DNA of 60,898 nucleotides from Candidatus Aminicenantes bacterium (lineage in GTDB: Bacteria > Acidobacteriota > Aminicenantia > JAMOAD01), in NCBI GenBank assembly GCA_027031485.1, contig JALVQI010000229.1:1-60898 (forward strand), given 5' to 3'. The notes below the pieces were generated by a model. The model ran no database searches. It was not told where the DNA came from and saw only the letters and a list, made by a program, of their open reading frames with translations. Made by a program: the position numbers and the translations under genes. Below are positions 1,320 to 47,848 of this stretch, one piece after another (positions within the stretch are counted from its first letter, which is position 1; each line of letters starts with the position of its first letter).

Positions 1320-2426
1320 TTATCTTACTTTCAATGATAACAAGGAGATTACTGTTAGTATTATTGCGATAATCCAGAGTCTTATCACTGCTTTGGGTTC
1401 TGCAATTCCCTCATGGGTCAAAGAGTGATGAAGCGGAGCTCTGTAAACAAGACGCCTACCCACTCTGTTCCCGATCTTTTCCTGTAGAAAGGATGTGAAA
1501 ATTTCAGCAATAAATACTCCTCCGCTTATTACAAATAAAAATTCCTGTTTTGTTAGAAATAGCATTAAAGCTATTGCTCCACCTATGGCAAGAGAGCCTG
1601 TATCTCCCATAAAAACTTCAGCTGGATAACTATTATACCAGAGAAACCCCATTATGGAGCCTATCAAAGCCGCCCCGAAAACAGTAATCTCCCCGCTTCC
1701 CTCAATGTATGGGAATAAATAGTGGGAAGCTGCAACAGAATTTCCTATTATATAAGCAAATATAGAATAAACTAGTATGGTTAAACTCGAAACTCCGCTT
1801 AAAAGCCCGTCCATTCCATCTGTTATGTTTATTGCATTTATAACAGAAAACATTACAAAGATTATAAAAACAACAAAACCAATCTCTCCGAGATTGAGAA
1901 TAGGGTTTTTATAAAAAGGAATGTATATCAGAGTCTTTATTTTCTGAGGCACAGGGCAGAGAGGCGATATATAGTATAAAGAAAATGGTATTATATAAAG
2001 TAGCATTAATATTGTTTTCCCCCATTGGCTTAATCCTGAAAGGGAAGATTTAAACCTTGATTTTTGAAAATCATCAAGAAAACCTACAAAACCAAAGTAT
2101 AAAAAGGCTGACAAAAGGATATAAAGAAAAGAATTTGTAAAATCTCCCCACAAAATCAAAGAGAAGAGAGTTGAGCTTATAATTAAGATTCCACCACCTG
2201 TGGGAGTTCCCCTTTTTGAGTAGGCATTGATTGAGAGCATCTCACCTGATGTGTCTCTGAACTTTTTCCTGTACAAAAAAAGTATGAATTTGAATCCGAA
2301 AATCAATGAGAATATAATGGATGTTCCCATTCCCATTATTGCCCTGAAAGTTATATAGTCCATTAATCTGAAAAAACCGTAGTTAATACCCGAAAGCTTT
2401 AAAAGTGCAATTATTAGTTCAATCAT
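1320..2426 (-). CDS. mraY: Phospho-N-acetylmuramoyl-pentapeptide transferase (MraY, divergent)
   Basis: Motifs GTPTGGG, GFLDD, NAINITDGMDGL, YPAEVFMGDTGSLAIGG and APLHH. The N-terminal YITFR motif and about 10 TM helices are present. Confidence 0.9.
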   Translation of the reverse strand: MIELIIALLKLSGINYGFFRLMDYITFRAIMGMGTSIIFSLIFGFKFILFLYRKKFRDTSGEMLSINAYSKRGTPTGGGILIISSTLFSLILWGDFTNSFLYILLSAFLYFGFVGFLDDFQKSRFKSSLSGLSQWGKTILMLLYIIPFSLYYISPLCPVPQKIKTLIYIPFYKNPILNLGEIGFVVFIIFVMFSVINAINITDGMDGLLSGVSSLTILVYSIFAYIIGNSVAASHYLFPYIEGSGEITVFGAALIGSIMGFLWYNSYPAEVFMGDTGSLAIGGAIALMLFLTKQEFLFVISGGVFIAEIFTSFLQEKIGNRVGRRLVYRAPLHHSLTHEGIAEPKAVIRLWIIAIILTVISLLSLKVR

Positions 2427-5400
2427 TCTTTATATCCTTCTAATATTTTAACAACTTTCATATATTTTTCCCTGACTCTGAATTCGGGTTTGAATTCAGA
2501 GGTTGTTATTAACATCTGTTTTATAAAATTCTTAACCTTCGTAAGATCTTCAAACTTCTTATTAATCAAGCCGCATTCTATACTTTCCAGCAGAGCTTCC
2601 CTTATTCTTATGTTTCTTGAAGAAAGATACTGTCTGTTAAATCTAAAAAACTCATCTTCACTTAAAAATAATACTCCCGCTCTTATTGCCTCGGCTTTCA
2701 CTTCAAAACTCTCGCTCTTTTTTGATAATTTTTCCATTATCTTATTTTTTATGGTTTGATCATCTTTTAAATTTTCATAAAATCTCCTGTAAAGTGAAAT
2801 GGCTTCTCTTCTAACCTCATAGTAAGAATCATCGAGAGCTCTTTCAATAATCTCTTTGAAAAAATCAAAGTATTTTTCAGATTTTCCGAATGCTATAAGG
2901 GAGTTTCTCCTTAAAAAGCCTTTGAAGTCCGAAAAGTTTTCATATATCCAGGGGTAAAGGTCTTCCCTTCTCAAACTTCCAATCAATTTAATAGCTTTGT
3001 TCACAACAAGATAATTATCTGATCTCATATATTCCCGAATCTTGTTATTGTACAACTTCACATAAAGGTTATCCTTACCTTTTTCTTGGACTGTTTTATC
3101 AAGGTATCTGATCAAACTATCAAAAAGTCTCCTAAACCTGACAAAACGAGGCTCTACAATTTCAATGAGAAAATCAAGAGGTTCGTCATTAAAGAGTTTT
3201 TTTACGGTATCCGCGATAATTTTATCAGAATTTTTAATTGAAAATTTTCCTATGTGCTGACTAAAGGATTTCAATTTTTCACTATCTTTTAACAGAGAAT
3301 AGATAAGTCCAATAAATTCCTTTTTATCTATATAATCAATACCTGTTTCAAAATCAAGTTTCTCAAAAATGATTTCAGCAGCTTTGCTTTCCACTATATT
3401 AATCGCATTTAATTCCTGATGATCTCCCGGAAGCCCTCTTTTGGGTACCAACACGGATGGTTTCCTTAAAGCTGCGATTTCAGATATGGCACCTGCTCCT
3501 GCTCTGCTGATAATCAAATCAGCCGCCTTTTGATAATTTACGATATCATGGATATATTTTATGCCTTTATAATAAAAGCCCTCCTTTGTTTTAACCTCAA
3601 AGTTTTTATCATCAAAGTCTTTACCAAGTTCGTTTTTAAGAATCGCTTTTGTGTCTTTATGGGAATCGTATTCCTCACTTTTCGCCAGACCGAGAGAATG
3701 GTAGATATACAATTTACTATTTTTCATCAATTCTTTCATTGAGTTGGCTGCTACTCTGTTTATACTCCTTGAACCGAGAGAACCTCCGGTTATAAGTATA
3801 AAAAACTTTTCTTCTGGTATCCCTAACTTTCTTTTCATCTCAGCTTTATCATATTCCCTATAATAATCCTCTCTCAGCGGATATCCACACAAAACACATC
3901 GGTTAGACCAGATAAAGTATGAGGTTTCCCTGTAATTAACCAACACAACATCAGCCATAAGTGAAGCAAACTTGTTTAAAAGTCCCGGAACAAAGTTTTG
4001 CTCCTCTATTACAATTTTTAATTTTAAAAATGGTTTTAAAAGAAATCCCGCAAAGACAACGGGAGCGGAAACATATCCACCGGTAGCAACAATAAGATGA
4101 GGTTTGAATTTCAAAATTTTAAGACCTGCTTGCAGTGTGCCTTTTATTATTTTAATTAAAACTTTAACCTTGTTTCCTGAAAATGGAGAAGAGGTTATAA
4201 ATTCAAGCTTTATGCCCTTCTTCTTTTTAATGATTTTTTCTTCAGCCCTTCCTCTGATGCCAAGATATAGAACATCACCGACAAACCCCTCCTTTTTTAA
4301 TATATTGTAAATTGAGAGAGACGGATAAACATGGCCACCTGTTCCTCCCCCTGTTAAAATCACTCTCTTTTTAGTGGAGTATCTCTTTCTCCAGAAACCA
4401 TATACTATTATCCCATAGGCAACAAATGATACTAAAAAAGCAAAACCAAGGTAAAAAAGCATTGACAAAAACCCGTGAATCTTATTGGAAAACAATTTAA
4501 AGATTAATAGAATCGGGACAAAGAAAAATGAAGCAAAAATAAGTTTGGCACTTGTTAATATAAACCTTTTGTATTCAATTTTTATTTTGAATTTTGAAAG
4601 ATATACAAGCAATATTATTGATTGGATAAAAATTGCTATAGCTGTTGCAAGGGCAATTCCTCCCTGTTTAAGAGATGTCCTGTAAAGAATAAAATCAAGA
4701 ACAATATTAATCAATCCCCCCCAGAAAGCAGCATAAAGCGGTAACTTATTATCTTCAAGAGCAGAATATACCCTGTTAAACAGAGCCACAAAACCACTCG
4801 GTAAAAGGGAAAGAGAATAATAAAAAAATGCAAGAGAAGTTTCGGAAACAGCAACACTGTCAAAGGCTCCTCTTTTATAGAAGAGAATTATTATCTCTTT
4901 TGAAAAAAGGAGAAAAAACAGTGTAATCGGGAAAAGGATAATCAGAATCAAATCAATTCCTGTACTTGTCATCTCTGAAAATTTTTTCATTTCTTTTTTC
5001 CCTCTTGATTTTGAAAGCTCCGGTGCAATGGTCCTTGATAGAGAAAGAGGTATTACTGAGATTGGAAGATTTATTATTCTGAAACTATACCAGAGAGATG
5101 AAATTGCTCCGCTTCCTATCAAAGATGCCACTATTCTATCTACAATCTGTGTGCTTTTTGTGATGAGTGATGATATTAATATCTTGGCGCCCTCCCTGAA
5201 GGATTTGCCTACACGAGCCGATTCCTTTGTTTTTTTCGATTCCATAAGATTTCTACCGATTTTTAAAAGTGCCGGAATCTGATAAAAGATAAAAGCTCCC
5301 GCACCAAGAAGATAGGCAAAAGCCATTGATTTTATACCGACTCTGGAATGAAAGAGAATCATAATAAAAATAATCGTGAGATTCATAAAAGCGGGAGCTG

Positions 5401-5890
5401 TGCTATAAATTAACTCTTTTCCGCTGAAAAGTAATATTGCTCCGAAGAAGGTTGAAATTGCTATCAATACCATGAACGGAGCAACTATTTTTGCAAGTTC
5501 AATTGTAAGCAAAAAGGTGTCGTGATCCATTCCGGGAGCGAGAATCTTAATAATAAACGGAAGAAAAATATAAATAATCGCTAAAAGCAAAATTGACACG
5601 ACAAAGGATATTAGAAAGGTTTTGATTAAAAATTTTCTTGCCTTCTCCTTTTTCCCTTCCTCAAACATTCTTTTGAATGGCGGAAGAAATGCTCTTTCGA
5701 ACATCTCCTCTCCCAAAACACGTCTGAATAAGTTGGGAACAGAGAAAGCTATGATAAAAGCATCATAGAGTTTACCACTACCGAAAAAGGCAGCTGCAAG
5801 GATCTCCCTTAAAAAGCCCAGAATCCTTGTAATCAATGTACCCCCGGCAATTAAAGAAGAACCTTTTAAAATTTCTTTCAAATTTTTCAT
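2423..5890 (-). CDS. murJ: MurJ (lipid II flippase)-MurG (GT28)-HEAT-like repeat triple fusion
   Basis: aa 1-500: TRILGFLRE, DAFIIAFSVPNLFRR, GGIALAT (MurJ). aa about 510-900: TGGGTGGHVYP, TGGYVSAP, EQN, GGSLGS, SRAGA, DHQELNA (MurG). C-terminus: ALDDSYYEVRREAI, ESFEVKAEAI, NIRIREAL (HEAT-like). Confidence 0.88.
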   Translation of the reverse strand: MKNLKEILKGSSLIAGGTLITRILGFLREILAAAFFGSGKLYDAFIIAFSVPNLFRRVLGEEMFERAFLPPFKRMFEEGKKEKARKFLIKTFLISFVVSILLLAIIYIFLPFIIKILAPGMDHDTFLLTIELAKIVAPFMVLIAISTFFGAILLFSGKELIYSTAPAFMNLTIIFIMILFHSRVGIKSMAFAYLLGAGAFIFYQIPALLKIGRNLMESKKTKESARVGKSFREGAKILISSLITKSTQIVDRIVASLIGSGAISSLWYSFRIINLPISVIPLSLSRTIAPELSKSRGKKEMKKFSEMTSTGIDLILIILFPITLFFLLFSKEIIILFYKRGAFDSVAVSETSLAFFYYSLSLLPSGFVALFNRVYSALEDNKLPLYAAFWGGLINIVLDFILYRTSLKQGGIALATAIAIFIQSIILLVYLSKFKIKIEYKRFILTSAKLIFASFFFVPILLIFKLFSNKIHGFLSMLFYLGFAFLVSFVAYGIIVYGFWRKRYSTKKRVILTGGGTGGHVYPSLSIYNILKKEGFVGDVLYLGIRGRAEEKIIKKKKGIKLEFITSSPFSGNKVKVLIKIIKGTLQAGLKILKFKPHLIVATGGYVSAPVVFAGFLLKPFLKLKIVIEEQNFVPGLLNKFASLMADVVLVNYRETSYFIWSNRCVLCGYPLREDYYREYDKAEMKRKLGIPEEKFFILITGGSLGSRSINRVAANSMKELMKNSKLYIYHSLGLAKSEEYDSHKDTKAILKNELGKDFDDKNFEVKTKEGFYYKGIKYIHDIVNYQKAADLIISRAGAGAISEIAALRKPSVLVPKRGLPGDHQELNAINIVESKAAEIIFEKLDFETGIDYIDKKEFIGLIYSLLKDSEKLKSFSQHIGKFSIKNSDKIIADTVKKLFNDEPLDFLIEIVEPRFVRFRRLFDSLIRYLDKTVQEKGKDNLYVKLYNNKIREYMRSDNYLVVNKAIKLIGSLRREDLYPWIYENFSDFKGFLRRNSLIAFGKSEKYFDFFKEIIERALDDSYYEVRREAISLYRRFYENLKDDQTIKNKIMEKLSKKSESFEVKAEAIRAGVLFLSEDEFFRFNRQYLSSRNIRIREALLESIECGLINKKFEDLTKVKNFIKQMLITTSEFKPEFRVREKYMKVVKILEGYKE

Positions 5891-11498: not shown

Positions 11499-11613
11499 TT
11501 CTCTCCTTTTTGCATATTATATTAAAAATAGACAACTCATGCAATATTACTCTTGCCAAAATCGGAAAAAAAGGTATAAAATATACTACTTTAAAAAACA
11601 ATGGAGGAAAATA

Positions 11614-12174
11614 TTGAAGAAAGCTTTAATAACTACATTTTTACTTCTAACCCTTTTTTCATTTTCTTTTGGGAAAATTAACGGATTTTCAGAGATCTCT
11701 TTAAATCTTCTTCTTCCTGCTGATCAAAATTTCAAAGATGCCTATTCAAATACCGTATTTTTGCCCTCTCTTTACGCAGGTATTCACATATACAGGGATT
11801 TTTTTGTCTGGGCCGGTTATCGCCTCTTTACCCAAAAGGGAGAGACAACTGCTTTAAAGGATGAAATCAAATACACCGAATATGATACTGGAGTCGGTTT
11901 GGGTTATTCAAAAGAATTAAATGAAAGCCTCAGTGTTGCTATTTATTCAGGTTTTTATTTCATAGCCTTTAAAGAAGAATTAACAGGCTCGGAAAAGGTT
12001 TCAAGAGATTCCACATTGGCTCTGACAGCGGGAGTATCGGTAAAATACAAAATTAAAAATCCCTTTTATGTTTTAATTGGAGCGAATTACACAGGAGGCC
12101 AAAATAACTCCTACAATCCTCCCGCAAAATTAGGCGGAATAATTGCTAAGGCAGGCTTTGGAATTAACTTTTAA
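11614..12174 (+). CDS. Small outer-membrane beta-barrel protein
   Basis: Probable TTG start at 11614 after GGAGG; signal peptide; amphipathic beta strands; C-terminal AGFGINF (BAM-type signal). Confidence 0.75.
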   Translation: MKKALITTFLLLTLFSFSFGKINGFSEISLNLLLPADQNFKDAYSNTVFLPSLYAGIHIYRDFFVWAGYRLFTQKGETTALKDEIKYTEYDTGVGLGYSKELNESLSVAIYSGFYFIAFKEELTGSEKVSRDSTLALTAGVSVKYKIKNPFYVLIGANYTGGQNNSYNPPAKLGGIIAKAGFGINF

Positions 12175-12223: not shown

Positions 12224-13864
12224 ATGAATCGTAAGTTTGTTCTTCTTCTTATACTATTTCTACTAACTATAATAATCAGAATCCCAAGGATTGAATCGGA
12301 TCCTCCTTCCATCGTTGCTTCAATATCAGGCAGCGCCAGTATATTCTGTGATGAGGGGATGTACCCTCATAATGCGAGGAATAAAATTCTTTTCAACAAA
12401 TGGGTTACAGATGATTGGAATCCATTTATTTACAACCCGATATTAACTATTCTATATTATCTGACATTTTTGATTTTCGGAGTAAAGATATTATTTGTAA
12501 AATTATGGAATCTTTTGTTTGCTTCCATTTCAGTTCTCTTATTCTTTTATATTGGGAATAAAAAGAAGATTAATATATGGTTACTCTTTCTCCTCTCTCT
12601 ACTCTTTTCATTTGATTTCTACTGGATTAATTATAGCAGAGTCGGACTTCTGGAAAATTTTTCAACTCTTTTTTTCATTCTCTCCTTTGTTTATTTTCTC
12701 AAGATTGAAGATAATCAGAAAAATGCATTTTTATCAGGAATGTTCGCTACCATTGCAATCCTATCAAAATATCTTTTCGCATACTTTTTATTTGCAACTT
12801 TTATTTCAATCCTTTTTTACACATTAAAGAAGAAAAATAAAAAGATCTTACTCTTTTTCACAGGAGGAGTGCTTACAACATTTTTACTCTGGTTGTTTAC
12901 AATATATTTACCAAATTTGAAATATTTTCACAAAATCGGAAATGCCTGGAGCTCTCAGAGTATTCCCCATACGACAAAAAGAATCTTTCATAATCTTATC
13001 AATAACTCCTTACCACGATACTTCTCAATTTCACCCCTAATCTTTTACATAGGGATTTTGTTCATTTCACTTATAATTGTGAAAGTCTTGCTGAGAATGG
13101 AAATAAAAGCTGATGAAGTTTATCTCTTTCTCTGGATCTCTTTTTCCTTTTTTCAAATCGGGATATTAAACTATCAGCCTTTAAGATACTATTTGCCTCT
13201 GATTCCCGCTTTGTTTCTGGCGTTTTCATACATTTTTTCCTATATTAATTCAGAGCAAAACAGACTAAAGTTTTCCTTTTTATCCATTTTTTTAAGTATG
13301 GCTTTTACTTTTATGTTTTTCCGCTCTTTTTCAAAACTTTTGCTTAAACCTCCGTCAGCTTTTTTTGTTTATCCCTTAATCTTCAGAATCACTCTCATAA
13401 TAGCCACACTGCTTTTTCTATACCTATTCATAGGAGGAATAAATAAATTTAAAATAAAAAAAACATTTATAACCATCTTAATTTTTGCTATTATTCTCTG
13501 GGGTGAAATATGGCTGCAATTCAGATTCGGATTCCAGACAAAATACAATTTGAAAAACATAAATACCTATATGGAAAAGAAATTAAATAGGGATAGCTTT
13601 ATAGTCGGACAATGTGCATTGAGAGCTGTTTTTGACACTAAATTAAAAGCAATCCCGGCATACAAAGGCTGGTTCAATGATAAAAACTTATTTCAAAGAT
13701 ATCCTATCACCCATCTTTTGATGTTAAAAAGATTCAACGAGCTCTCATGGATAGTTCATAGATATCCTCAAATCAAAAACAGATTAGAACTAATAAAAAC
13801 ATTCCCTATCTGGGATACAAAACTAATTTTCTATAAATTAAACAAAAAAAAGGAGGAAAAATGA
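12224..13864 (+). CDS. GT-C fold membrane glycosyltransferase (ArnT/PMT, GT39/GT83-like)
   Basis: DEG acidic motif after the first TM, then NP, SRVGLLE, AILSK and RYYLPLIP. Many TMs and a periplasmic C-terminal domain. Confidence 0.8.
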   Translation: MNRKFVLLLILFLLTIIIRIPRIESDPPSIVASISGSASIFCDEGMYPHNARNKILFNKWVTDDWNPFIYNPILTILYYLTFLIFGVKILFVKLWNLLFASISVLLFFYIGNKKKINIWLLFLLSLLFSFDFYWINYSRVGLLENFSTLFFILSFVYFLKIEDNQKNAFLSGMFATIAILSKYLFAYFLFATFISILFYTLKKKNKKILLFFTGGVLTTFLLWLFTIYLPNLKYFHKIGNAWSSQSIPHTTKRIFHNLINNSLPRYFSISPLIFYIGILFISLIIVKVLLRMEIKADEVYLFLWISFSFFQIGILNYQPLRYYLPLIPALFLAFSYIFSYINSEQNRLKFSFLSIFLSMAFTFMFFRSFSKLLLKPPSAFFVYPLIFRITLIIATLLFLYLFIGGINKFKIKKTFITILIFAIILWGEIWLQFRFGFQTKYNLKNINTYMEKKLNRDSFIVGQCALRAVFDTKLKAIPAYKGWFNDKNLFQRYPITHLLMLKRFNELSWIVHRYPQIKNRLELIKTFPIWDTKLIFYKLNKKKEEK

Positions 13865-15603
13865 TAAAAAGAAATCTTATTTTAACAATTCTTTTAAGTT
13901 TGTTATTAACTTTATCCGTTCAATCTCAGGAACTAAAGTTCAAAGATATAACCGCACAAGCCGGCTTATCATTGGTTGATCGATTGGGAGGACACGGAAC
14001 CGCCTGCGGAGATCTTAATAATGATGGCTGGATGGATTTTGTTATTACCAATTCATACAATCCTCAATTTGTATATATAAATCAAAAAAACGGTAAGTTC
14101 AGTCTTACAAAAATTGAAAATCATTATCTCAGCCATCAGGCATTGTTGGTGGATATAGACAATGACGGAGATCTTGACTTTGTAATAGCCAATGCTGGTA
14201 ACGGAGAGCCAAGTAAACTTTATCTTAATAATGGAAATGGCCAATTTACATTTAAAAATAGTGCATTAAAAACAAGTCCGGGAGGAACCAGGGGAACAAC
14301 TGCAAGCGACTTTAACAAAGACGGCTATCTGGACCTTTATACCGTAAATTTTTTATTTCCCAATCAACTTTTTATCAATCACGAAGGAAACTATTTTTCA
14401 GAAGAAGCGGAAAACTGGGATATACAGGATAAGGAAACCAATAAGGCGGGAAGTCAGGGGGTTGTTTCCGTAGACATTAATAATGATAAATTGCCCGATA
14501 TTTTTGTTTGCAAATACAAATACAATACAACCATAAACCAAAAACCACTTTTTTACATAAACCATGGAACATACTTTGTAAATGAAGCTCAAAAGAGAAA
14601 CATAAATGTAGAAAATCTCAATGGGGCAACTTTCGCAGACCTGGACAATGACGGAGATCTCGATTTAATATTAGCCAGACAATCTTCAAACAATTATCTT
14701 ACCATCTATAAAAACAATAACGGTTACTTTCAAAATATGACAAATGTTTTGAAAATTCCCCTAATACATAAACCGATATTTAGTATAATAACAGCAGATT
14801 TAAACAATGATGGATTGGAAGATATTTTCGTAGTTGGTTGGTATTCAACAAACAGATTATTTATAAATAAAGGAAATTGGAATTTTGAAAGTATAAATGC
14901 CTCAATTGAAGATTATTATTTGAACGGGAGATCGGGGTCCTTTATCGATTATGATAATGACGGAGACCTGGATATCCTAATAACAGGTTATATTGAACAC
15001 ACAAGACTTTATGAAAATTTGTACAGCGGGAATAATAAATCAATTCAACTGGATATTTTTGCCCCGAGCGGACAAAAAAGCCCTTTTGATTCAATAGTTT
15101 ATCTATATAAAAATTCATATGCTTACGGAACTCCATGGCAAACAAAACATTTAATATCAACTCAGGGCTATCTATCTCAGCCCTCAACAAGAATGCACTT
15201 CGGGGTTGCTCGGGAGAAAAATCTAAGCTGTAAAATTGAATACAATACGGGGGAAGTAAAATATCTTTTTAATATTCAACCTGAAGCTATTCTTTCGGTG
15301 GGGAATGTTCCGGATATTCAAATTTCAAACACTGAAAAAATTTATGACAGAGGTTTTCTTATAAAGAGAGTTATTGATAAGATAGATATTAGTATTACTG
15401 CCACTCAGCCAGTAAATAAAATTTATGTTTTCAGAAAAAGGACAGATGAAGATTCTTCAAACTATAAATTCATCAAAGAGTTTAATGGTAATACAAACAG
15501 CCTTTTGATTGAATCAGATGAAAATAGTTATGACTATGCAATTTATTATACGACAGAAAGCTCTCAAAGCTTTGTTAAATTTGCAAGTGTTTTGAAAAGA
15601 TAG
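13861..15603 (+). CDS. Secreted FG-GAP repeat / CRTAC1-ASPIC-UnbV family protein with an extra C-terminal beta domain
   Basis: Repeated DxxNDGxxD motifs (GDLNNDGWMD, DIDNDGDLD, DLDNDGDLD, DYDNDGDLD) and GYLSQ...HFG (UnbV). Confidence 0.88.
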   Translation: MIKRNLILTILLSLLLTLSVQSQELKFKDITAQAGLSLVDRLGGHGTACGDLNNDGWMDFVITNSYNPQFVYINQKNGKFSLTKIENHYLSHQALLVDIDNDGDLDFVIANAGNGEPSKLYLNNGNGQFTFKNSALKTSPGGTRGTTASDFNKDGYLDLYTVNFLFPNQLFINHEGNYFSEEAENWDIQDKETNKAGSQGVVSVDINNDKLPDIFVCKYKYNTTINQKPLFYINHGTYFVNEAQKRNINVENLNGATFADLDNDGDLDLILARQSSNNYLTIYKNNNGYFQNMTNVLKIPLIHKPIFSIITADLNNDGLEDIFVVGWYSTNRLFINKGNWNFESINASIEDYYLNGRSGSFIDYDNDGDLDILITGYIEHTRLYENLYSGNNKSIQLDIFAPSGQKSPFDSIVYLYKNSYAYGTPWQTKHLISTQGYLSQPSTRMHFGVAREKNLSCKIEYNTGEVKYLFNIQPEAILSVGNVPDIQISNTEKIYDRGFLIKRVIDKIDISITATQPVNKIYVFRKRTDEDSSNYKFIKEFNGNTNSLLIESDENSYDYAIYYTTESSQSFVKFASVLKR

Positions 15604-20991: not shown

Positions 20992-22503
20992 TTACTCTAT
21001 CTTGCTCTCACGGCCTTCACTATCCACACAGGTTACATAATAATCATATTTATAATCAGAAGTAATTGAATTGTCTGTATCTTCATAATACAGGGTATCT
21101 TTATCCAACTCAGCAATTTTCTTATATTCAGATATTGATTCTGTTTTTAATTTTCTATAAAGATTGTATTTAACCACATTGACTTTGTACTTTTCATTAT
21201 AAGGATTATTTTCCCAGGTTACATAATTAATATATTTTTCATAGAAAAAAGATCTTTCAACTTTTTTCTCCACTTTAACATTTACCGCCGATTTTATTGT
21301 AATAAACGGATAATCATATATGGAATAATAAACTGATGCTTCATCCTCCCTTGTGAACCAGGCACTCAAAATACCTATATTGGGGGCATAATATGTATCA
21401 AAAGTATAAGCGCTTGGCTGCTCTTCACATAAATCAATAGGGTCATCCATATTTATCCATTCTCCATCCTTATATTTAATCATTTTGATGGCAAACCCCG
21501 TATCTTTGTAAATTACAAGCAATTCTTCCGTCCCTCGTCTTAATACTTTTGAATGATATTCAAAATTGGGTCTTTGGGGCGCCTGAGCAAATATTTGATT
21601 ATCAAGGTTTGAATTATCAAATTTTACTTCATACTTTTTTGTTTTTTCATTATATACGACTTCAAATGGTTGATAAAAATATTTCTTCTTCTGAAACCAT
21701 GCAAAAGTCAACAATCCCTTTTTCTTCACAACTCCCACGGCAGGAAGCATATGCCAACCACCGTATTCCCATGTAAGCTCATTTACCCAATCAACCTTAT
21801 AATCATTATCCGGATTTATAACAGCCACTTTATCCATAATATCATCAGCTTCATTTAATTTATCCTGCTTATACGAAATATAAAGTACCCCATCTTCATC
21901 AAACGTTGCGAATTCATTAGTTGCAGAATATTTAAATCTTGATATGTTCACAGGCTCACTAAAAGTTTTGCTTCCCTTCTTTTTCACTCTGTAAATAACA
22001 TTTTTAGCCGTTCCGTTTCTATTGATCCATGTGATTACAACATCATCAGTAACAGGATTAACAACAAGCATCGGGCTCTCCACATATCCTAAAACAACCT
22101 TCTGGGGATTGGACCACTTCTTTGTTTTGGGGTCAAAGGTTGCATAATATCCTCCATGAATTCTCAAACTCCAGAAAGCATGAAAAACACCATCCGTAGT
22201 TGGTTCAACATCAGTCCACCAGATATTGGCATAGTCGGATTTAGGATAGTTCTGGTGAGGAATCTCCTTAGGTCCTTCCCATTTCCCGGAAGAATGATCT
22301 TTATAATAATAAACAACTCCTCTCTGACTGTTTCTATAAATTATCATTATATCTCCGTCTAAATTCGCACTGATAGAGGGAGATTCATTACTTCCTGATA
22401 AATCGGGAACTTTGTTAACTTCCTTAAGCCCCTCTCCCAAACTTATTGAAGCAATAATCAAAACAAAACCAATTACGAATAATAATAATTTATTCAATTT
22501 CAT
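20992..22503 (-). CDS. Secreted beta-propeller-like protein with a C-terminal Fn3-like domain
   Basis: Signal peptide, repeated W/F-S-x-P blade-like motifs, and a C-terminal TWENNP...YNLYRK...YYED...YDYYVTCVDSEGRES. Confidence 0.65.
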   Translation of the reverse strand: MKLNKLLLFVIGFVLIIASISLGEGLKEVNKVPDLSGSNESPSISANLDGDIMIIYRNSQRGVVYYYKDHSSGKWEGPKEIPHQNYPKSDYANIWWTDVEPTTDGVFHAFWSLRIHGGYYATFDPKTKKWSNPQKVVLGYVESPMLVVNPVTDDVVITWINRNGTAKNVIYRVKKKGSKTFSEPVNISRFKYSATNEFATFDEDGVLYISYKQDKLNEADDIMDKVAVINPDNDYKVDWVNELTWEYGGWHMLPAVGVVKKKGLLTFAWFQKKKYFYQPFEVVYNEKTKKYEVKFDNSNLDNQIFAQAPQRPNFEYHSKVLRRGTEELLVIYKDTGFAIKMIKYKDGEWINMDDPIDLCEEQPSAYTFDTYYAPNIGILSAWFTREDEASVYYSIYDYPFITIKSAVNVKVEKKVERSFFYEKYINYVTWENNPYNEKYKVNVVKYNLYRKLKTESISEYKKIAELDKDTLYYEDTDNSITSDYKYDYYVTCVDSEGRESKIE

Positions 22504-22988
22504 TTTCTTCTCCTTATTATTTTATTTACGCCGATTTGAGTATTAGCCTGATTTTGCTGTCTTTTTGAGACTACGGGATATCTGCTGTTTTTCCATTTTA
22601 CCAATCCTCCATTCAGATTATAAACCGTGTAACCTAATCCCTGTAAATTGTATGCACTTAAAATACCTCTTCTTCCTCTATAGCTAAAAACAACAATGGG
22701 AGTCCCTTTCCCAACATATCGCCCTATCTTAAACTCAATAACTCCTCTGGGTATATTGATAGCTCCGGGAATTGTCAATTTTTTATATTCACCGGGCTCA
22801 TCTACATCAATAAAGACAGCTTTTTTTTGTAAATACCATTGGTATGCCTGTGATACGGAAACTTTTTTAATCATTGCATTGGAAGCCCTTAACATTTTTT
22901 CTAATGTTGTCGCTTTCACATAAACACTCAGAGAAACAAAAACCAAAACAATTAATAAAACAATAAAATGTTTTTTCTTCATCTTCAT
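22500..22988 (-). CDS. Secreted rhodanese-like domain protein (catalytic Cys replaced by Ser)
   Basis: FIDVDEPGEY, IPGAINIPRG, VVFSYRGRRG and NLNGGLVKW; signal peptide. Confidence 0.8.
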   Translation of the reverse strand: MKMKKKHFIVLLIVLVFVSLSVYVKATTLEKMLRASNAMIKKVSVSQAYQWYLQKKAVFIDVDEPGEYKKLTIPGAINIPRGVIEFKIGRYVGKGTPIVVFSYRGRRGILSAYNLQGLGYTVYNLNGGLVKWKNSRYPVVSKRQQNQANTQIGVNKIIRRRK

Positions 22989-23008: not shown

Positions 23009-24748
23009 TTAAAATCTTATACCAATTCCAAAGATCGTTTCAACTCCACTCATATCAAATTCTTTATTTCCCACCGTATCCTTTACACTATTATATTTAA
23101 CATGAATTATCCCTTCCACATATTTAATTCCGCCTCCAATGAAAAGACCAAAATCAAAAGCATATCCGCTTGCACTACCGGTAGTCACGAGCTCAGGGGT
23201 ATCCTCTTCATATGAGAACATATTCAAAGCAATACCTACAAATGGAGATGCATATTTATTTTTGTAAATTACATATCTAATTCCTATATTGTTGGGATGA
23301 ATAGTAAAGGTAGTTTTTTTCTTATAATAAGTTGTTGTAGAGTTATCCTCATACTTTTTAACTGTACCCCATATGTGAAAACCATACATTATTCTTATAT
23401 CCAATTCAGCACCAAGCAAATTTTTAGATCTTTCGTAAAAATTACCGAAATCTTCATCATTAATATTAAAATTACTACCAATTAAAAAAAGGCCAAAACG
23501 GTCTCCAAGAATTTTAATTTTTTCTCCCTGAATTTTTTTCTTTTCCTTCCTTTTTTTCTCCTTTACAGGTTTCTCCTTTTTTACCGGCTTTACTTCCTTT
23601 TTCTTTTTAACAATTTCTTTCTTTTCTTTTTTTACCTTTTTTTTCTTTTCGGCTTTTCTCAAACTTACTTTTCCAATTTTTTTCAATAGCTTTACTTCTA
23701 CTCCATCTTTAAGGCACATACAATGAGAAGGACTAACCTCTTTCATAGGAGAAATAATTACCTTAGTGATTAAAAGATCTTGCTCGGAAAACTTACTCTT
23801 TGGGTTAATCACATATTTCCCATCAATAAAATCATCAACCAAAATATTATATTTAATAGCAACTTTCTTTTTTAGCAAACCTAAAAATGTCTTTTTTTCT
23901 CCAAGAAGAAAAACAAAATACTTATTAGCACTCTTTTTAACAAAAGATTCAGGCAAAATCACAACATTCTTATACTCTTTTTCTTTTAATTTAAAACAAA
24001 AATCAAAAGGAGAATCAATTGTTAAACTTTCATTATTGAAGAATAAAACAATTTTTTCACCTGAAATATCCTTTATTTTGACGTTTAATTTTTTCTTATC
24101 CTCTATTGAAACAATCTCTATTTCTTCTTTCCCACTGAACAAACTCTTATCTTTTTCAGAAATATTAATAGAAGAAAACATATGTTTTTTAATTACTATT
24201 ATTCCTATAGTCTCACCTTCGTTTACTGTATCTCCCACTTTTACATAGAGCTTCTCAATTTCTCCGCCGACAGGTGTTTTTATTTTATATTTTTCAGCTT
24301 CCTGTTTTTTTAATTCCAGTAGATTTGTATACTTCTTAATGTTTCTTTCAGCTTGAGCTTCAGCTCTCGGACTTCTAACTTTCCAGTGTTTTCTTCTGTT
24401 CAATATTCTTTTCCACTTTTTAATATTTTTGTCAAGTTTATCAATCTCATCAGATAAACCATTATTAAGGATTAGCACAATCATATCTTTTGATACAACA
24501 TTATTCTCCGAAGCTTTAACTTCTGTTACGGTCCCTGAGACTGGAGAAACAATACTGACTCTTTCAAAATCAAAACTTCCAGTAAATTTTTTATATTTTG
24601 TAATATTTCCTTTTTTTATTTTGTCAACTTTCACAAGAAGTTTTTTAGGACACCTTACATTTCCCTTACTATTTTGAGCAAAGGAAAAAGAAAATATTAC
24701 CAATAACATCAGAGTTAGTACACCTATCTTTTTAATTTCTTGTTTCAT
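23009..24748 (-). CDS. Periplasmic adaptor (membrane fusion protein, HlyD/AcrA-like) fused to a C-terminal outer-membrane beta-barrel
   Basis: Split lipoyl halves IVSPVSGTVTEV and IKTPVGGEIEKLYVKVGDTV flank a helical hairpin. A Lys-rich linker leads to a barrel ending in FGIGIRF. Confidence 0.75.
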   Translation of the reverse strand: MKQEIKKIGVLTLMLLVIFSFSFAQNSKGNVRCPKKLLVKVDKIKKGNITKYKKFTGSFDFERVSIVSPVSGTVTEVKASENNVVSKDMIVLILNNGLSDEIDKLDKNIKKWKRILNRRKHWKVRSPRAEAQAERNIKKYTNLLELKKQEAEKYKIKTPVGGEIEKLYVKVGDTVNEGETIGIIVIKKHMFSSINISEKDKSLFSGKEEIEIVSIEDKKKLNVKIKDISGEKIVLFFNNESLTIDSPFDFCFKLKEKEYKNVVILPESFVKKSANKYFVFLLGEKKTFLGLLKKKVAIKYNILVDDFIDGKYVINPKSKFSEQDLLITKVIISPMKEVSPSHCMCLKDGVEVKLLKKIGKVSLRKAEKKKKVKKEKKEIVKKKKEVKPVKKEKPVKEKKRKEKKKIQGEKIKILGDRFGLFLIGSNFNINDEDFGNFYERSKNLLGAELDIRIMYGFHIWGTVKKYEDNSTTTYYKKKTTFTIHPNNIGIRYVIYKNKYASPFVGIALNMFSYEEDTPELVTTGSASGYAFDFGLFIGGGIKYVEGIIHVKYNSVKDTVGNKEFDMSGVETIFGIGIRF

Positions 24749-24780
24749 TTAAAAAAAACCTCCTTTTAATATGAGAAAGT

Positions 24781-24809
24781 ATTTTAATAAAAATTAATAA
24801 TCGTGTCAA
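24781..24809 (-). promoter_or_regulatory. Near-consensus sigma70 promoter for the 24748-17541 operon
   Basis: TTGACA-17 nt-TAAAAT on the minus strand, followed by a GGAGG RBS. Confidence 0.65.
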
Positions 24810-43705: not shown

Positions 43706-44044
43706 CTACTCTTTCTCATCAAAAAATAACGGAATATTTTCTGTCTGAGTGAAAAAATTATCAAGATTTTTTCTTATGTTCTGAGTAACAGCAATTTTTT
43801 TCTTTAAAATTTCCGTTTTTTCTCTTAAACTATCTTCGACCCTTTTTCCAAATTCAAAAACCTCTTTTAGTAATTTTTCCTCTTCAGGTTTTTGAATTCT
43901 TATTTTTTCAATTTTTTTAAAAAGAGTATGATTGGATTTAATTAACCGTTCAATCTCACTCCAATTTTCTTCTTTTAAAGCAAGTTCTTCTTTCTCTAAA
44001 TTTTCCTTTATTTTTTTTAACAAATCAAGATTACTATCACCCAT
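43706..44044 (-). CDS. FliT-like flagellar chaperone
   Basis: Short helical protein directly after fliS, with WSEIERLI. The start is uncertain (44044 or 44092). Confidence 0.55.
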   Translation of the reverse strand: MGDSNLDLLKKIKENLEKEELALKEENWSEIERLIKSNHTLFKKIEKIRIQKPEEEKLLKEVFEFGKRVEDSLREKTEILKKKIAVTQNIRKNLDNFFTQTENIPLFFDEKE

Positions 44045-44489
44045 ATATTTCAAGCCTTTTCTCTTCTTTCTGCCCCATTGAAGAAATACCATTTACGGAA
44101 GCTTCTTCTTTATTTCCGTTTTTCTTCTTTTTAATCATCTCTTTCCATGTTGAATGAAGTTCCTTAAAAATATTTTCCACTGTTTCAAGCTTTTTAAGAT
44201 CATTGTTAAAATTAAATTCACTTAACTCTTTTGTTGAAAATAAATATAAATTATCCAGATTTTTTGCTATTATACCGCCCTTATCAAAATCTAAAATTGA
44301 TCTTAAATAGGAAATAATATCTATAACTCTGTTCACTTTCTCAACCTTTCCCTCAACATCCCCTTTTCTTAGATTTTCCTTAATTTCATTAATAAATCTT
44401 AAAGTTCCGCTGTAAATAAAAGCGATAAGTTCATCTCCATCCAAATTTGAAATTTCATTTTCAATATAACTTTTTGATTCAAAACTCAT
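44037..44489 (-). CDS. fliS: Flagellin export chaperone FliS
   Basis: LRSILDFDKGGIIAKNLDNLYLF...ELHSTW; located after fliD. Confidence 0.92.
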   Translation of the reverse strand: MSFESKSYIENEISNLDGDELIAFIYSGTLRFINEIKENLRKGDVEGKVEKVNRVIDIISYLRSILDFDKGGIIAKNLDNLYLFSTKELSEFNFNNDLKKLETVENIFKELHSTWKEMIKKKKNGNKEEASVNGISSMGQKEEKRLEIYG

Positions 44490-44503
44490 ACTAAAACCTC
44501 CCT

Positions 44504-46414
44504 TTATCTACTAATACCTGTAAAATTATTCTGAAGGCTCATTAACAATTGTTGCATTTGAGCCATCGCTCTGTTTGCAGCATCAAATTCCTGAAACAGT
44601 CTTTGTCTTTCATCTTCAAGGTCCTGTCTAAATTCTTCAATTCTCTCATTTAGATTTTTTATATTAGTGTCAAGATTATTGAGCTCCTTGGTAATGGGTC
44701 CCTCATTTCCTGTTTCAGTACTCAAGAGATCCTTCAATCTTTCGTTAAAATTTGAAATAACTCCATAAGTTAAACTCACATTCCCGAAAGAACCCGTACT
44801 TGTCATTGTCCCAAAGATCTTCAAACCTTCCACAGGTCCTTCAGAACCTGTCAAGACTCTCCCTTCACCTGTCGCAGCATATCCCCCTATTGTTCCTGCA
44901 ATATCAACACCCGTATCCGTAAGCTGAGTTGTTCCTATTCCTGTCCCGCCTGCATCCGCAGCAACATTTGAAACTATGGAGAAAGTTTCAGATGAGCCAT
45001 AGTTGTCCGTTTGAACAACAAGATAATTACCATTGCTCGTAGCACTTATAGGAACACTATTATTATCCATTACAGTATTAATCTTTTCTATAATATCATC
45101 CAAAGTATCATTTTGACTTAAATCCACACTATAATCATTTCCATCATAGGTTATTGTAAGGGTTTCATCCTGGGAAATTCCCCCGACCGGAACTTCGTAA
45201 GAACCCTGTATGGAAGCCCTCTCAGGCGCTGCTGTAATTTCCACGGCATATGTCCCGGCTTCTGTGCTGCTTGTTCTCGCAATATAAGACACATTCGTAT
45301 TTGATGTTGTTGCTATTTCCTCAAAGACTTTTTTAACTCCTTCATAATCATCCTCTATAGCATCCTCAAATTTTTCCGAGTCAAGATAGATAGTACCATC
45401 ATTGTTCATCCTTATACCTATATCAACCAGACTCTGATATGTGGCATCAGAATCAATACCTTCCACTTTCGATGAAATCATCTCCAACACAGCAGACTGA
45501 ACACTTCTTGCCGCACTGTTTCCGGAAAGAGGTCCTGCACTTTTTGTTTCCTCATTGTAAGAAAATTGTGAATTCAAATATGAAATAACATCATTATACT
45601 TTGAGACAAAATCATTTATTTTTGACTCTAAATTACTAAAATCATTATTAATAGTTAGAGTAACTGTCTTTGTTGCATCAGCCTGTTTTAAGTTTAAAGT
45701 AACTCCCTCTATCACATCATCTATTGTATTGGATGATCTTGTAATAGCATCCGAAACATCCGTTGTATTTACATTAATTAAAGCATCCTGAGCTGAGATC
45801 TTTTCAGTCATATTTGTTCCCACACCTGTATCATCAATGGTAAAAGCATAATCAGTCCCTGTTTCCGTTGCTGTTATCTGGAGTTTATACTCTGAGCCAT
45901 CATAAATCACAGTAGCTCTTACATCAAGACCGGAATTGTTTATTGCATCCCTGAGACCTGTCAAACTTCTTGTCTCACCAGTGATATCAATATCAACTGT
46001 TTGTCCGTTCTGAGTTATTGAAAAAGTTGTCCCGTCCGTAAGCACTTCGGAATCGGCGGAAGAAAATCCATCAGAGCTATCTGATTCAGCTCTTGCAAGT
46101 TGCCTTACAATTATATAATAATCTCCTGTTTGAGCTCCGCTTTGCGTTGTGGCGGTCAGGATATCTTCATCCGAAACAGCAGCACTTCCGGTTGATATCG
46201 AATCAAAATCGGATAATGTGGAAACAGCGGATTTCAGGGAGGAGACTTTTGTATTTAATGTTTGAAGAGCGGATTTCTCTGCCTCATAGGACTGAATTTC
46301 ATTTTGATAATTTCTGATAGGATAACTTTTTGCATATATAATCTTATTAACAATATCATTAACATCGAGTGGACCTGCGGCAAACATCCCACCATAGATA
46401 CTTGATGTATCCAT
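44504..46414 (-). CDS. fliD: Flagellar filament cap FliD
   Basis: LDVNDIVNKI, VRQLARA, AQDA, RSSNTIDDVIEGVTLNL, FVSKYNDV and a C-terminal coiled coil. Confidence 0.93.
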   Translation of the reverse strand: MDTSSIYGGMFAAGPLDVNDIVNKIIYAKSYPIRNYQNEIQSYEAEKSALQTLNTKVSSLKSAVSTLSDFDSISTGSAAVSDEDILTATTQSGAQTGDYYIIVRQLARAESDSSDGFSSADSEVLTDGTTFSITQNGQTVDIDITGETRSLTGLRDAINNSGLDVRATVIYDGSEYKLQITATETGTDYAFTIDDTGVGTNMTEKISAQDALINVNTTDVSDAITRSSNTIDDVIEGVTLNLKQADATKTVTLTINNDFSNLESKINDFVSKYNDVISYLNSQFSYNEETKSAGPLSGNSAARSVQSAVLEMISSKVEGIDSDATYQSLVDIGIRMNNDGTIYLDSEKFEDAIEDDYEGVKKVFEEIATTSNTNVSYIARTSSTEAGTYAVEITAAPERASIQGSYEVPVGGISQDETLTITYDGNDYSVDLSQNDTLDDIIEKINTVMDNNSVPISATSNGNYLVVQTDNYGSSETFSIVSNVAADAGGTGIGTTQLTDTGVDIAGTIGGYAATGEGRVLTGSEGPVEGLKIFGTMTSTGSFGNVSLTYGVISNFNERLKDLLSTETGNEGPITKELNNLDTNIKNLNERIEEFRQDLEDERQRLFQEFDAANRAMAQMQQLLMSLQNNFTGISR

Positions 46415-46453
46415 TTTTCTCCTCCAATACTATTTTTTATTTATATTACTATA

Positions 46454-46975
46454 CTAAATATTCCTGTTTAAGATCAAACCCTTTGTTTCCAGAGCACTTT
46501 TTCCGTCATAAAGATGGGATTTTGAGTTCTCTTTTCTCTCCATCTTCTCCTCATTCTTTTTGTTCTGCCTGTAAAGCTCCACTATAAACTTATAGAACTC
46601 TTTCGGTGGAATCTGTTTAATAACTTTTTTTGTTTTTTTGTCAAGAATTTTTATAATATCTCTTTTGGTCTCCTTGTCTCTCTCAAACTTGAGTTCCGTA
46701 TTTTCAAGTGTCTGAATTTGTTCTTTAATCTTCTCATAATTTTCTTTTATACTTTCCTTAATGGAATTTATGTCCATAAGCTCTTCTGCGGGAGGAGCAG
46801 TATGTTTGTCAACATTCTCTCCCTTATTTTCAGCTGTTTTTCCTTTTATACGAACACTATCTTCATAGGAACTTACTTTACTAACGGGAGGAGCAGAGTG
46901 AGGAGGGGATGAATACTCCCCTCCTTTATATGTCACACTCTTTATCTCATTTAAATTTACAGCTTCCACAGACAT
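46454..46975 (-). CDS. flaG: Flagellar protein FlaG
   Basis: LKFERDKET...ILDKKTKKVIKQIPPKE and a terminal GLILN; located between the flagellin gene and fliD. Confidence 0.88.
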   Translation of the reverse strand: MSVEAVNLNEIKSVTYKGGEYSSPPHSAPPVSKVSSYEDSVRIKGKTAENKGENVDKHTAPPAEELMDINSIKESIKENYEKIKEQIQTLENTELKFERDKETKRDIIKILDKKTKKVIKQIPPKEFYKFIVELYRQNKKNEEKMERKENSKSHLYDGKSALETKGLILNRNI

Positions 46976-47014
46976 TTTTCCCCCTCTTTAAAAAAGAGAG
47001 TTTAAAAATTATCC

Positions 47015-47848
47015 TTACCTGAACAATCCAAGGACCATCTGAGCGGAAGCGTTTGCCTGTCCCAAAGATGCCATACCGCTTTGCATCAAGATCTGGAATT
47101 TTGTTAAGTTAACCATCTCCTGAGCCATATTGGCATCTCTTATGATGGACTCTGCACCTCTTAGATTAATAGCCTGTGTGTTAATAATGGCTATTGAGTT
47201 TTGAAGTCTGTTTGACTGTGCTCCTAAGACACCTCTCCATCTTGAAATAGAAGCTATTGCATTTCTGATCTCTCCCAATGCAGATTGAGCATTACTTGCG
47301 GTAGTCAATGAGCTTGTAAGACCAAGGCTGGATGATGAAGCTGCTCCACCTATTGACAAGGTTATTGTACTCGCAATGTGAGTATCCCCGACATAAATAT
47401 CCTTTGTTACAGCGCCAGCTGAACTGAATAATCTCTCACCCTTAAAGTTAACCGAACTGAAGACTCTGTCAATTTCTGACTTAATCTGCTGGTATTCAAC
47501 ATCAATTGTCTGTCTTTCTGTAGCACCAACAGTGCCTGATGCAGCTTCTTCAGCAAGAGTAACAGCTCTGTTTAAGAGATCAGTAACCTTTGCCAATGCA
47601 CCGTCAGCAATCTGGATTATACCTGATGCATCGTTGGCATTTCTGTAAGCCTGATCCAGCGCATAGACATCAGCTTTTAAAAGATTTGCAATAGCAAGAC
47701 CTGCAGCATCGTCTCCGGCATCAACAATACGATAACCTGAAGAAATTCTTGCAATGGTCTTATTAAGACCAATGTTTGATGTGTAAAGATTTTGCTGAGC
47801 ATACATAGATGAAACATTTGTGATAACACTAAAAGATTGTGCTCCCAT
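47015..47848 (-). CDS. fliC: Flagellin (short, 277 aa)
   Basis: ISSGYRI..AGDDAAGLAIA, NANDA, LGAQSNRL and SIIRDANMAQEM..LTKFQIL. Confidence 0.95.
   Translation of the reverse strand: MGAQSFSVITNVSSMYAQQNLYTSNIGLNKTIARISSGYRIVDAGDDAAGLAIANLLKADVYALDQAYRNANDASGIIQIADGALAKVTDLLNRAVTLAEEAASGTVGATERQTIDVEYQQIKSEIDRVFSSVNFKGERLFSSAGAVTKDIYVGDTHIASTITLSIGGAASSSSLGLTSSLTTASNAQSALGEIRNAIASISRWRGVLGAQSNRLQNSIAIINTQAINLRGAESIIRDANMAQEMVNLTKFQILMQSGMASLGQANASAQMVLGLFR

Follow-up and report, generated by a model that had tools for sequence, protein, structure and literature searches.

How does a periplasmic adaptor of the membrane fusion protein (MFP) type come to end in an outer-membrane beta-barrel, with no pump gene at its side? 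This question is raised by a minus-strand gene in a stretch of 60,898 nucleotides from a Candidatus Aminicenantes bacterium (contig JALVQI010000229.1), which is called the window in the following. MFPs are normally anchored at the inner membrane and are parts of pump operons. The initial annotation had described the product of this gene as a signal peptide, an MFP, a linker and a barrel encoded behind a near-consensus promoter, and had suggested that the adaptor is held from the outer membrane, perhaps as a conduit or strut across the periplasm. The fusion belongs to a conserved natural family and is linked to the gene of a secreted beta-propeller protein. It is best read, with a probability of about one half, as an outer-membrane barrel/propeller module that gained a tethered periplasmic adaptor.

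Architecture of the fusion protein

The open reading frame (ORF) fills its stretch on the minus strand exactly and encodes 579 amino acids plus a stop codon (Table 1). An AlphaFold2 model, for which a family alignment of 32 sequences was the input, has a mean predicted local distance difference test (pLDDT) score of 84.4. It consists of a helix (residues 3–23), an adaptor-like body (36–354), a segment with pLDDT below 50 (357–413) and eight long strands (418–578). The N-terminus, MKQEIKK-IGVLTLMLLVIFSFSF-A followed by Q, comprises a basic n-region, a hydrophobic core of 16 residues and the residues S-F-A ahead of Q25, and it reads as a cleavable Sec leader, in agreement with the signal peptide that had been noted initially and with the helix of the model. 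A lipobox (L-x-x-C) was not found in the leader when the translation was read by eye. Cys33, nine residues behind the predicted cleavage site, was considered as a lipoprotein cysteine and was rejected, as no lipobox is present and Cys33 co-varies with Cys345 as a pair. Adaptor, tether and barrel form one exported chain.

The adaptor part is a complete four-domain fold, modeled with pLDDT values above 90 across most of residues 40–350. When the family profile was searched against the PDB, the best adaptor matches were the TriA-TriB fusion 6vej (E = 5.5e-28), a MacA/MexA chimera (3.1e-27) and a MexC-like protein (2.8e-25), followed by AcrA/MexA at about 1e-19. Foldseek placed AcrA and MexA on top for the fusion model (E = 9e-18 to 2e-16), and VIA-align, which covered 48,161 chains, aligned 292 residues of the model (35–352) with MacA at a Z score of 15.6. 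The N-terminal part thus has an MFP fold, as proposed in the initial annotation. Among the weak lipoyl/HlyD matches in Pfam, PF13437 (24.6 vs. a cut-off of 22.2) and PF13533 (30.1 vs. 29.8) pass. A search of the ESM Atlas returned ordinary adaptor clusters only, at 0.80–0.81, which is under the level that counts.

The alpha-hairpin of the adaptor is 60–61 amino acids long in 28 of the 32 aligned relatives, and its tip carries a motif which is apparently family-specific, very basic and strongly conserved. The most constant positions are L116 and K123 (30 of 32 each), A133 (29), R119 and A129 (28 each), W122 (27), R125 and E130 (26 each), W112 (24) and S126 (23). The duct-binding tip motif of known adaptors is R-x3-L-x6-S. 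The arrangement in the fusion family, L116-x2-R119-x2-W-K-x-R-S126, appears to differ from this spacing.

The two cysteines which bound the adaptor part, C33 and C345, are invariant over the 32 aligned full-length members. Furthermore, the MFP module occurs two or three times ahead of one barrel in some natural chains (P0009, P0013, P0015, P0032 and G002:C6:35819-38803), of which P0009, with a length of 1331 amino acids, comprises three modules and a single barrel. The Cys pair is spaced by about 285–305 residues in all 21 modules of these chains, and 11 of the 21 match the regular expression of the tip. The pair would form a disulfide by which the N-terminal strand is fastened to the membrane-proximal domain, and such a bond agrees with a periplasmic location of the adaptor part. 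As chains of two and of three modules divide evenly into six, the modules may form a ring-like oligomer.

Adaptor and barrel are connected by a tether with 31 K/R and 9 D/E in a segment of 62 residues, giving a net charge of about +22. The linker had been described initially as about 45 residues rich in Lys, Glu and Pro; its richness in Lys and Glu was retained, whereas the length was corrected to about 57 residues and only 2 prolines were counted. Over 32 fusion proteins the tether, as the measured segment, is 30–89 residues long (median 61) with a median net charge of +9.5, and one relative (P0044) has a net negative tether (−13). Fully stretched, the 57 or so residues could reach across no more than about 20 nm, and as a coil across far less.

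The C-terminal part of about 166 residues forms an eight-stranded barrel ending in GIGIRF; the terminal Phe is as described initially, and the length corrects the roughly 170 residues given there. Over positions 431–571, the family profile matched AlkL, OmpW, OprG and NspA in the PDB at E values of 1e-6 to 2e-5. With VIA-align, the best fit was OmpW (Z = 18.3, root-mean-square deviation 2.6, 161 residues aligned, model 415–579), followed by NspA (17.9), the N-terminal domain of OprF (17.1) and OmpA (16.1). Within the error of Z, OmpW (E about 2e-6, Z = 18.3) is not closer to the fusion barrel than NspA or OprF. The fusion protein itself has no match to PF13505 (OMP_b-brl) at E ≤ 1, and the relatives P0003, P0004, P0006 and many others match this family at 1e-5 to 1e-12. 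Judged by eye and without a count, the C-terminal residue of most barrel-bearing relatives is F, L or I. With the corrections to the linker and the barrel length, the anatomy given initially was confirmed by the model, the profile search against the PDB, Foldseek and VIA-align.

Both ends of an even-stranded barrel lie in the periplasm, and for this reason the adaptor would be suspended from the outer membrane into the periplasm. It is very probable that the chain is held in the outer membrane by its barrel and that the adaptor part is periplasmic; the fold, the profile matches and the conservation of the family support the outer-membrane anchoring suggested initially.

An enzymatic, PagL-like barrel was considered and rejected, since a motif containing H and S, which is found in barrel-only relatives, is not kept in the fusion protein.

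Related barrels with a similar K/E/P-rich linker occur behind other N-terminal domains. Among 41 proteins scanned, 14 carry an AMIN domain, one (P0121) an LpoB-like domain and one a PKD domain. Tether and barrel are together a predicted reusable C-terminal outer-membrane anchor.

As a separate observation, the AMIN-tether-barrel and LpoB-like-tether-barrel proteins (P0099, P0144, P0091, P0121 and others) are cases in which the small barrel would anchor peptidoglycan-related domains.

Conservation and taxonomic distribution

The search for the same architecture which the initial annotation had named as a check yielded dozens of relatives at 20–45% identity with the order adaptor, tether and barrel. 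A word-index search returned six relatives, for three of which precomputed Pfam lists already gave adaptor domains together with the PF13505 barrel. With phmmer, 201 matches at E ≤ 1e-3 were obtained among 1.84 billion representatives, 80 of them at E ≤ 1e-10; many are 530–700 amino acids long and align over residues 1–579 of the query. The 32 full-length members which were aligned share 18–36% identity with the query, apart from one at 98%. A copy from another genome ('Candidatus Aminicenantes bacterium') is 97% identical by BLASTP; its tether carries substitutions, is two amino acids longer and stays in frame.

The DNA of the tether contains runs of 7–8 A, and a frameshift or an assembly error which joins two genes at this A-rich position was therefore weighed as an explanation of the fusion. 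The open frame and the architecture are kept in the 97% identical copy as well as in at least 31 further relatives at 18–36% identity, and full-length matches without stops occur in at least 30 genomes. Because divergent relatives keep the same frame and architecture, the A-runs are not the cause of the fusion, and the chance that it is an artefact is negligible.

In the source genome (97.8% complete, 245 contigs) the fusion is present in one copy. Its distribution was analyzed in an evenly sampled set of 201 genomes of the class Aminicenantia, in which a best E value ≤ 1e-50 was counted as presence. The fusion was found in all six genomes of the family f1, the source genome included, in 56 of 72 genomes of the family f2 and in none of the 123 genomes of the other twelve families, which have only ordinary adaptors matching at E values of 1e-20 to 1e-39. 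A phylum-wide sample gave 14 positive genomes out of 401, all of them f1 or f2. In the genomes sampled, the fusion family is confined to these two families of Aminicenantia.

In addition, a search with a family alignment of seven rows returned three loci, two of which (L002 and L003) are labeled 'uncultured Clostridia bacterium'. A wider distribution on the strength of these two loci was rejected, as they carry the gene pair of Aminicenantia and their labels look wrong. The proteins of L002 are those of L060, a locus of the same genus, for which reason the Clostridia labels were not counted; the neighboring genes of L003 are those of f2 loci.

Pairing with a secreted propeller protein

The operon headed by the fusion gene contains as its third gene one for a protein of 503 amino acids with a signal peptide, a seven-bladed beta-propeller and a C-terminal beta-sandwich. 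This neighbor was the main clue and was absent from the initial annotation. The protein was modeled with a pLDDT of 90.2, and its propeller resembles the rhamnosidase/GH145 fold, rhamnose-glucuronate and ulvan lyases, fucose lectins, sialidases and generic propellers (Foldseek E about 1e-10; Z scores of 25–31 in rows covering residues 22–402). No curated family for it was found in Pfam or NCBIfam, and no PDB entry reached an E value below 0.1 in a profile search. Some of its relatives have added PKD domains and weak BNR_4 matches.

Taken alone, the C-terminal beta-sandwich of the propeller protein (residues 401–503) matches the C-termini of many different proteins of 500–1000 amino acids in most families of the class (profile positions of about 398–498, E = 1e-20 to 1e-27), which suggests a domain for sorting or docking that is common to these proteins.

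The pairing was examined in 21 fusion loci, i.e., the window and 20 loci of relatives, with up to 10 kb on each side and less at contig ends. In 15 loci the propeller gene directly adjoins the fusion gene, and in four, including the window, one gene lies between them; in the remaining two the propeller gene was not found. Three loci (L053, L059 and L070) have multiple copies of propeller genes and barrel-bearing genes in alternation. In the window the two genes are separated by a gene for a rhodanese-domain protein, whose stop is overlapped by the start of the propeller gene by 4 nucleotides. A rhodanese gene at that position was not seen in the 20 loci of the relatives.

Full-length propeller homologs occur also in families without the fusion. 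Fifteen loci of such homologs, taken from the top of the match list, were scanned with hidden Markov models (HMMs) of the four domains. The lineages that lack the fusion (f12, f11 and f3) have a barrel-only gene of 206–267 codons right next to the propeller gene in seven of eight loci. These genes encode a signal peptide and a barrel and cover the full barrel HMM at E values of 1e-29 to 1e-31, and in at least two loci (L063 and L064) their frames overlap those of the propeller genes. In one f8 locus, the gene adjoining the propeller gene encodes an N-terminal domain, AMIN-like by eye, followed by a tether and a barrel.

A FastTree phylogeny of 128 barrel domains places the barrel of the query in a set of 32 rows with 99% support, which is composed of 20 MFP-fused barrels, seven barrel-only proteins adjacent to a propeller and five others. 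The AMIN-linked barrels fall outside this set. The conserved unit would therefore be the secreted propeller protein together with a small barrel, and the barrel would have gained the adaptor in two families.

Prediction of a complex of the MFP (30–356), the barrel (414–579) and the propeller protein (24–503, the scored partner) gave scores of 0.59, 0.61 and 0.59. In the controls, swaps of the partner gave 0.00 and 0.09, and replacement of the MFP by an unrelated protein gave 0.64. The result speaks neither for nor against binding.

Pumps, ducts and locus context

The window was scanned for pumps and ducts among all ORFs of at least 110 amino acids, and in this set neither a resistance-nodulation-division (RND) pump, a MacB-type pump or a major facilitator superfamily pump nor a TolC/OEP gene was found. 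The FtsE/FtsX genes at 50309–51872 are the sole type-VII ATP-binding cassette (ABC) pair and lie 26 kb off the fusion gene. Among the 104 neighbors within 6 kb in the loci of the 20 relatives, no RND pump or TolC was present, and a MacB-type permease was found only at L045, where it has two HlyD-type adaptors of its own. The lack of a nearby pump or TolC, as noted initially, thus extends to 20 of the 21 loci. On other contigs of the source genome, RND pumps are accompanied by five ordinary adaptors, and three TolC-like genes are present.

The recurrent context of the fusion loci is surface-glycan chemistry, with sulfatases, epimerases, glycosyltransferases of the types GT-C (PMT_2) and GT2, methyl-, acetyl- and carbamoyltransferases, and GDSL esterases.

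Proposed role of the fusion protein

According to the proposed explanation, the eight-stranded C-terminal barrel would be inserted in the outer membrane, and the complete MFP body would hang in the periplasm on its cationic, disordered tether, which would reverse the usual anchoring at the inner membrane. The ancestral unit would be the propeller protein and the barrel, with the tethered adaptor being gained by the barrel in the two Aminicenantia families. Barrel and propeller protein would probably act together at the outer membrane. Tentatively, the adaptor modules, each stapled by its Cys-Cys disulfide, may assemble into the usual ring-like oligomer, and the basic hairpin tip may dock to a conserved envelope partner encoded elsewhere, by which the surface module would be coupled to the periplasm or the inner membrane. 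The partner of the tip could be a machine of the type-VII ABC or RND kind, a TolC-like duct or an anionic surface. The fusion protein would in this case not be a component of an operon-encoded drug pump.

Several observations weigh against this explanation. Adaptor-less MacB-type permeases, i.e., without an adaptor gene on the same contig, exist in the source genome (two on C200 and one each on C16, C156 and C6), which leaves room for a distant pump partner. The pairing of propeller and barrel is not obligatory, because none of five propeller paralogs in f1 and f2 genomes (four with the fusion and one without; the paralog on C211 of the source genome is included) has a barrel neighbor. The FastTree run was a quick one with many unsupported forks, on which the MFP label needs 6–9 gains or losses, so that either the adaptor was gained and lost multiple times or the tree is not resolved. 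Moreover, the 36 loci were taken from the top of match lists of related genomes and not at random, and the source organism is an uncultured, metagenome-assembled genome. The fusion protein misses the curated cut-offs of TIGR01730 (42.4 vs. 94.9 bits) and PF16576 (24.7 vs. 30). Finally, the evidence for the disulfide, the ring and the partner of the tip is conservation only.

The protein could also be an ordinary adaptor of a tripartite system that differs from others only in its anchor and works with an RND or MacB-type pump and a TolC-like duct whose genes lie elsewhere. The tether would be long enough for the membrane-proximal domain to contact the pump, and the propeller would be irrelevant. 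The full four-domain fold, including the membrane-proximal domain and closest to RND- and MacA-type adaptors, argues for such a role, and a conserved hairpin tip is what is expected for docking to a conserved duct. The genome offers the TolC-like genes, several RND pumps and the adaptor-less MacB-type permeases as partners, and the tandem modules recall the paired TriA/TriB, which is the top match in the PDB. This explanation is nevertheless unlikely, as no pump is linked in 20 of 21 loci despite the divergence of the family to 20–40% identity, whereas the propeller is linked in 19 of 21, as the same barrel is paired with a propeller gene where the adaptor is absent, and as the tip motif is family-specific and apparently lacks the R-x3-L-x6-S spacing. 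A structural tether or spacer of the envelope is improbable. In this role the basic tether and tip would bind peptidoglycan or anionic lipids, either those of the inner membrane or those in the inner leaflet of the outer membrane, and the protein would set the width of the periplasm like the Lpp- and OmpA-type tethers. A complete adaptor fold, a conserved tip, a Cys pair and tandem modules exceed the needs of a spacer, the tether of P0044 is net negative, and the pairing with the propeller is left unexplained, although the positive charge of the tether in the query and over the 32 relatives, the K/R/W-rich tip, and the fusion of homologous barrels to the LpoB-like domain and to AMIN domains, which are annotated as peptidoglycan-associated, fit a module that hangs periplasmic domains from the outer membrane.

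Quite improbable is, furthermore, a dedicated device for export or display of the propeller protein, in which an adaptor ring, an ABC partner in the inner membrane and the barrels move the propeller to the surface or hold it there, like the systems of the two-partner or Slam type with their adjacent cargo genes. Its appeal lies in the tight linkage of a secreted protein and a barrel-bearing protein, often in alternating copies, and in the C-terminal domain of about 100 residues, whose recurrence at the C-termini of diverse proteins of the class would be expected of a domain for sorting or docking. However, the pore of an eight-stranded barrel is generally too narrow for a polypeptide, the barrel-only form does its job without an adaptor, and no ABC partner is linked.

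Beyond the preferred reading of a barrel/propeller module with an added adaptor, a more specific picture can be drawn, which is rather unlikely to hold in detail: a trans-envelope system without TolC or an operon-encoded pump. An adaptor ring hung by its own barrels might gather and position barrel/propeller units, e.g., in an ordered surface array, or might transmit force or substrate between an inner-membrane machine and a surface-exposed propeller enzyme. The MFP fold would then stand upside-down, with its basic tip pointing toward the inner membrane or the peptidoglycan.

Comparison with known envelope systems

The fusion protein shares the four-domain fold with the adaptors of RND- and ABC-type systems (AcrA, MexA, MacA, TriA/TriB). 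Unlike AcrA-, MexA- and MacA-type adaptors, it has neither a lipobox nor an N-terminal membrane anchor and ends instead in an outer-membrane barrel, its gene is not located beside a pump or duct, and its family is characterized by a tip motif of its own, an invariant Cys pair and chains of two to three modules; the protein also scores below the TIGR01730 cut-off. As inner-membrane anchoring and pump linkage are lacking and TIGR01730 stays under its threshold, the fusion is set apart from the standard members of the adaptor group. The adaptor fold seems to have been recruited to another task of the envelope, in which a secreted propeller protein of the carbohydrate type takes the place of the pump as the linked gene product.

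With the small barrels of OmpW/AlkL/OprG, NspA and the N-terminal domains of OmpA and OprF (PF13505), the fusion barrel has in common that its eight long strands run antiparallel and that its last residue is aromatic. Unlike OmpA, it bears its large periplasmic domain at the N-terminus via a disordered tether, i.e., in reverse order, and unlike OmpW-type barrels, it is part of a lineage whose genes are paired with that of a secreted propeller protein.

The LpoB-type design consists of an outer-membrane anchor, a long disordered linker and a periplasmic effector which reaches a partner in the inner membrane. Like LpoB, the fusion protein has an outer-membrane anchor, a disordered linker of about 50–60 residues and a folded periplasmic domain; LpoB is anchored by an N-terminal lipid, whereas the anchor is a C-terminal barrel and the effector an MFP in the fusion protein. 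A small C-terminal barrel with a disordered tether may be a general anchoring device of Aminicenantia that holds AMIN, LpoB-like and MFP domains in the way of the lipid anchors of model bacteria.

In two-partner secretion and Slam systems, a barrel gene lies beside the gene of a secreted protein. The fusion loci are alike in this respect, often with repeated pairs, but the fusion barrel has only eight strands, and neither POTRA nor DUF560 is present.

No description of an adaptor fused to an outer-membrane barrel was found in full-text searches of the literature or in passages of PMC8277102 and PMC10629564; subscription papers and supplements were outside the scope of this search. The family adds to the known adaptors a conserved natural group with a predicted outer-membrane anchor, a tip of its own and a repeatable module with a putative disulfide staple.

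Gene signals and other features of the loci

The features of the fusion gene and its operon are listed in Table 1. The promoter named in the initial annotation is present as a sequence match, yet it carries no statistical weight: sites of this class occurred 40 times in a scan of the region compared to 42.4 expected from shuffled sequences, and the site is therefore regarded as a pattern match only.

Table 1. Positions of the fusion gene, its parts, its upstream signals and the operon genes downstream of it in the window.
Feature	Position	Strand	Basis
Promoter match, sigma-70-like, TTGACA-17 nt-TAAAAT, 5′ of the fusion gene	24781..24809	-	11/12 consensus positions
Shine-Dalgarno-like AAAGGAGG; GGAGG 10 nt 5′ of ATG	24759..24766	-	read from sequence
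Fusion ORF: signal peptide, MFP, tether and barrel	23009..24748	-	ORF list, translation, AlphaFold2 model
Signal peptide, Sec-type, residues 1–24	24677..24748	-	read by eye from translation; helix 3–23 in model
Four-domain periplasmic adaptor (membrane-proximal, beta-barrel, lipoyl, alpha-hairpin), residues 33–356, bounded by Cys33/Cys345	23681..24652	-	alignment, model, profile, fold searches
Alpha-hairpin, residues 95–154	24287..24466	-	model; helices 95–120 and 127–154
Basic hairpin-tip motif KKWKRIL..R.HWKVRS..AE.QA, residues 110–133	24350..24421	-	alignment of 32
Disordered Lys/Glu-rich tether, residues 357–413 (57 residues)	23510..23680	-	pLDDT < 50
Predicted eight-stranded outer-membrane barrel, residues 414–579 (about 166 residues), C-terminal ...GIGIRF	23012..23509	-	model, profile, fold searches, barrel HMM
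Rhodanese-domain protein, 162 residues, N-terminal hydrophobic leader	22500..22988	-	ORF list, domain scan
Propeller protein (c1), 503 residues: signal peptide, seven-bladed beta-propeller (about 24–400), C-terminal beta-sandwich of about 100 residues	20992..22503	-	clustering, model, fold matches

The rhodanese-domain protein has a weak match to the NCBIfam model 'rhoda_near_glyco' and is probably periplasmic. A barrel-only paralog of the barrel family of the fusion, with a length of 211 amino acids, is encoded on the plus strand of the window at 11539–12174 (barrel HMM, E = 6.5e-12). It is followed by the gene of a membrane protein of 546 amino acids, whose C-terminal 268 residues (13058–13861) cluster with proteins matching the PMT_2/GT-C family of Pfam, by the gene of an FG-GAP protein (13861–15603) and by that of a 644-residue protein of unknown type.

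Furthermore, a single minus-strand ORF of 1155 codons at 2423–5890 comprises MurJ (residues 33–471) and both glycosyltransferase-28 domains of MurG (510–844), which is an apparent fusion of the lipid II flippase with MurG. A flagellar filament cluster with FliS, FliD, FlaG and flagellin is located on the same strand at 44037–47848. In the loci of relatives, two tandem proteins of about 270 amino acids with BamE domains are encoded just downstream of the fusion-propeller pair at L042 (11263–13058), and a BamB-like PQQ_2 protein was identified near the pair at L053.

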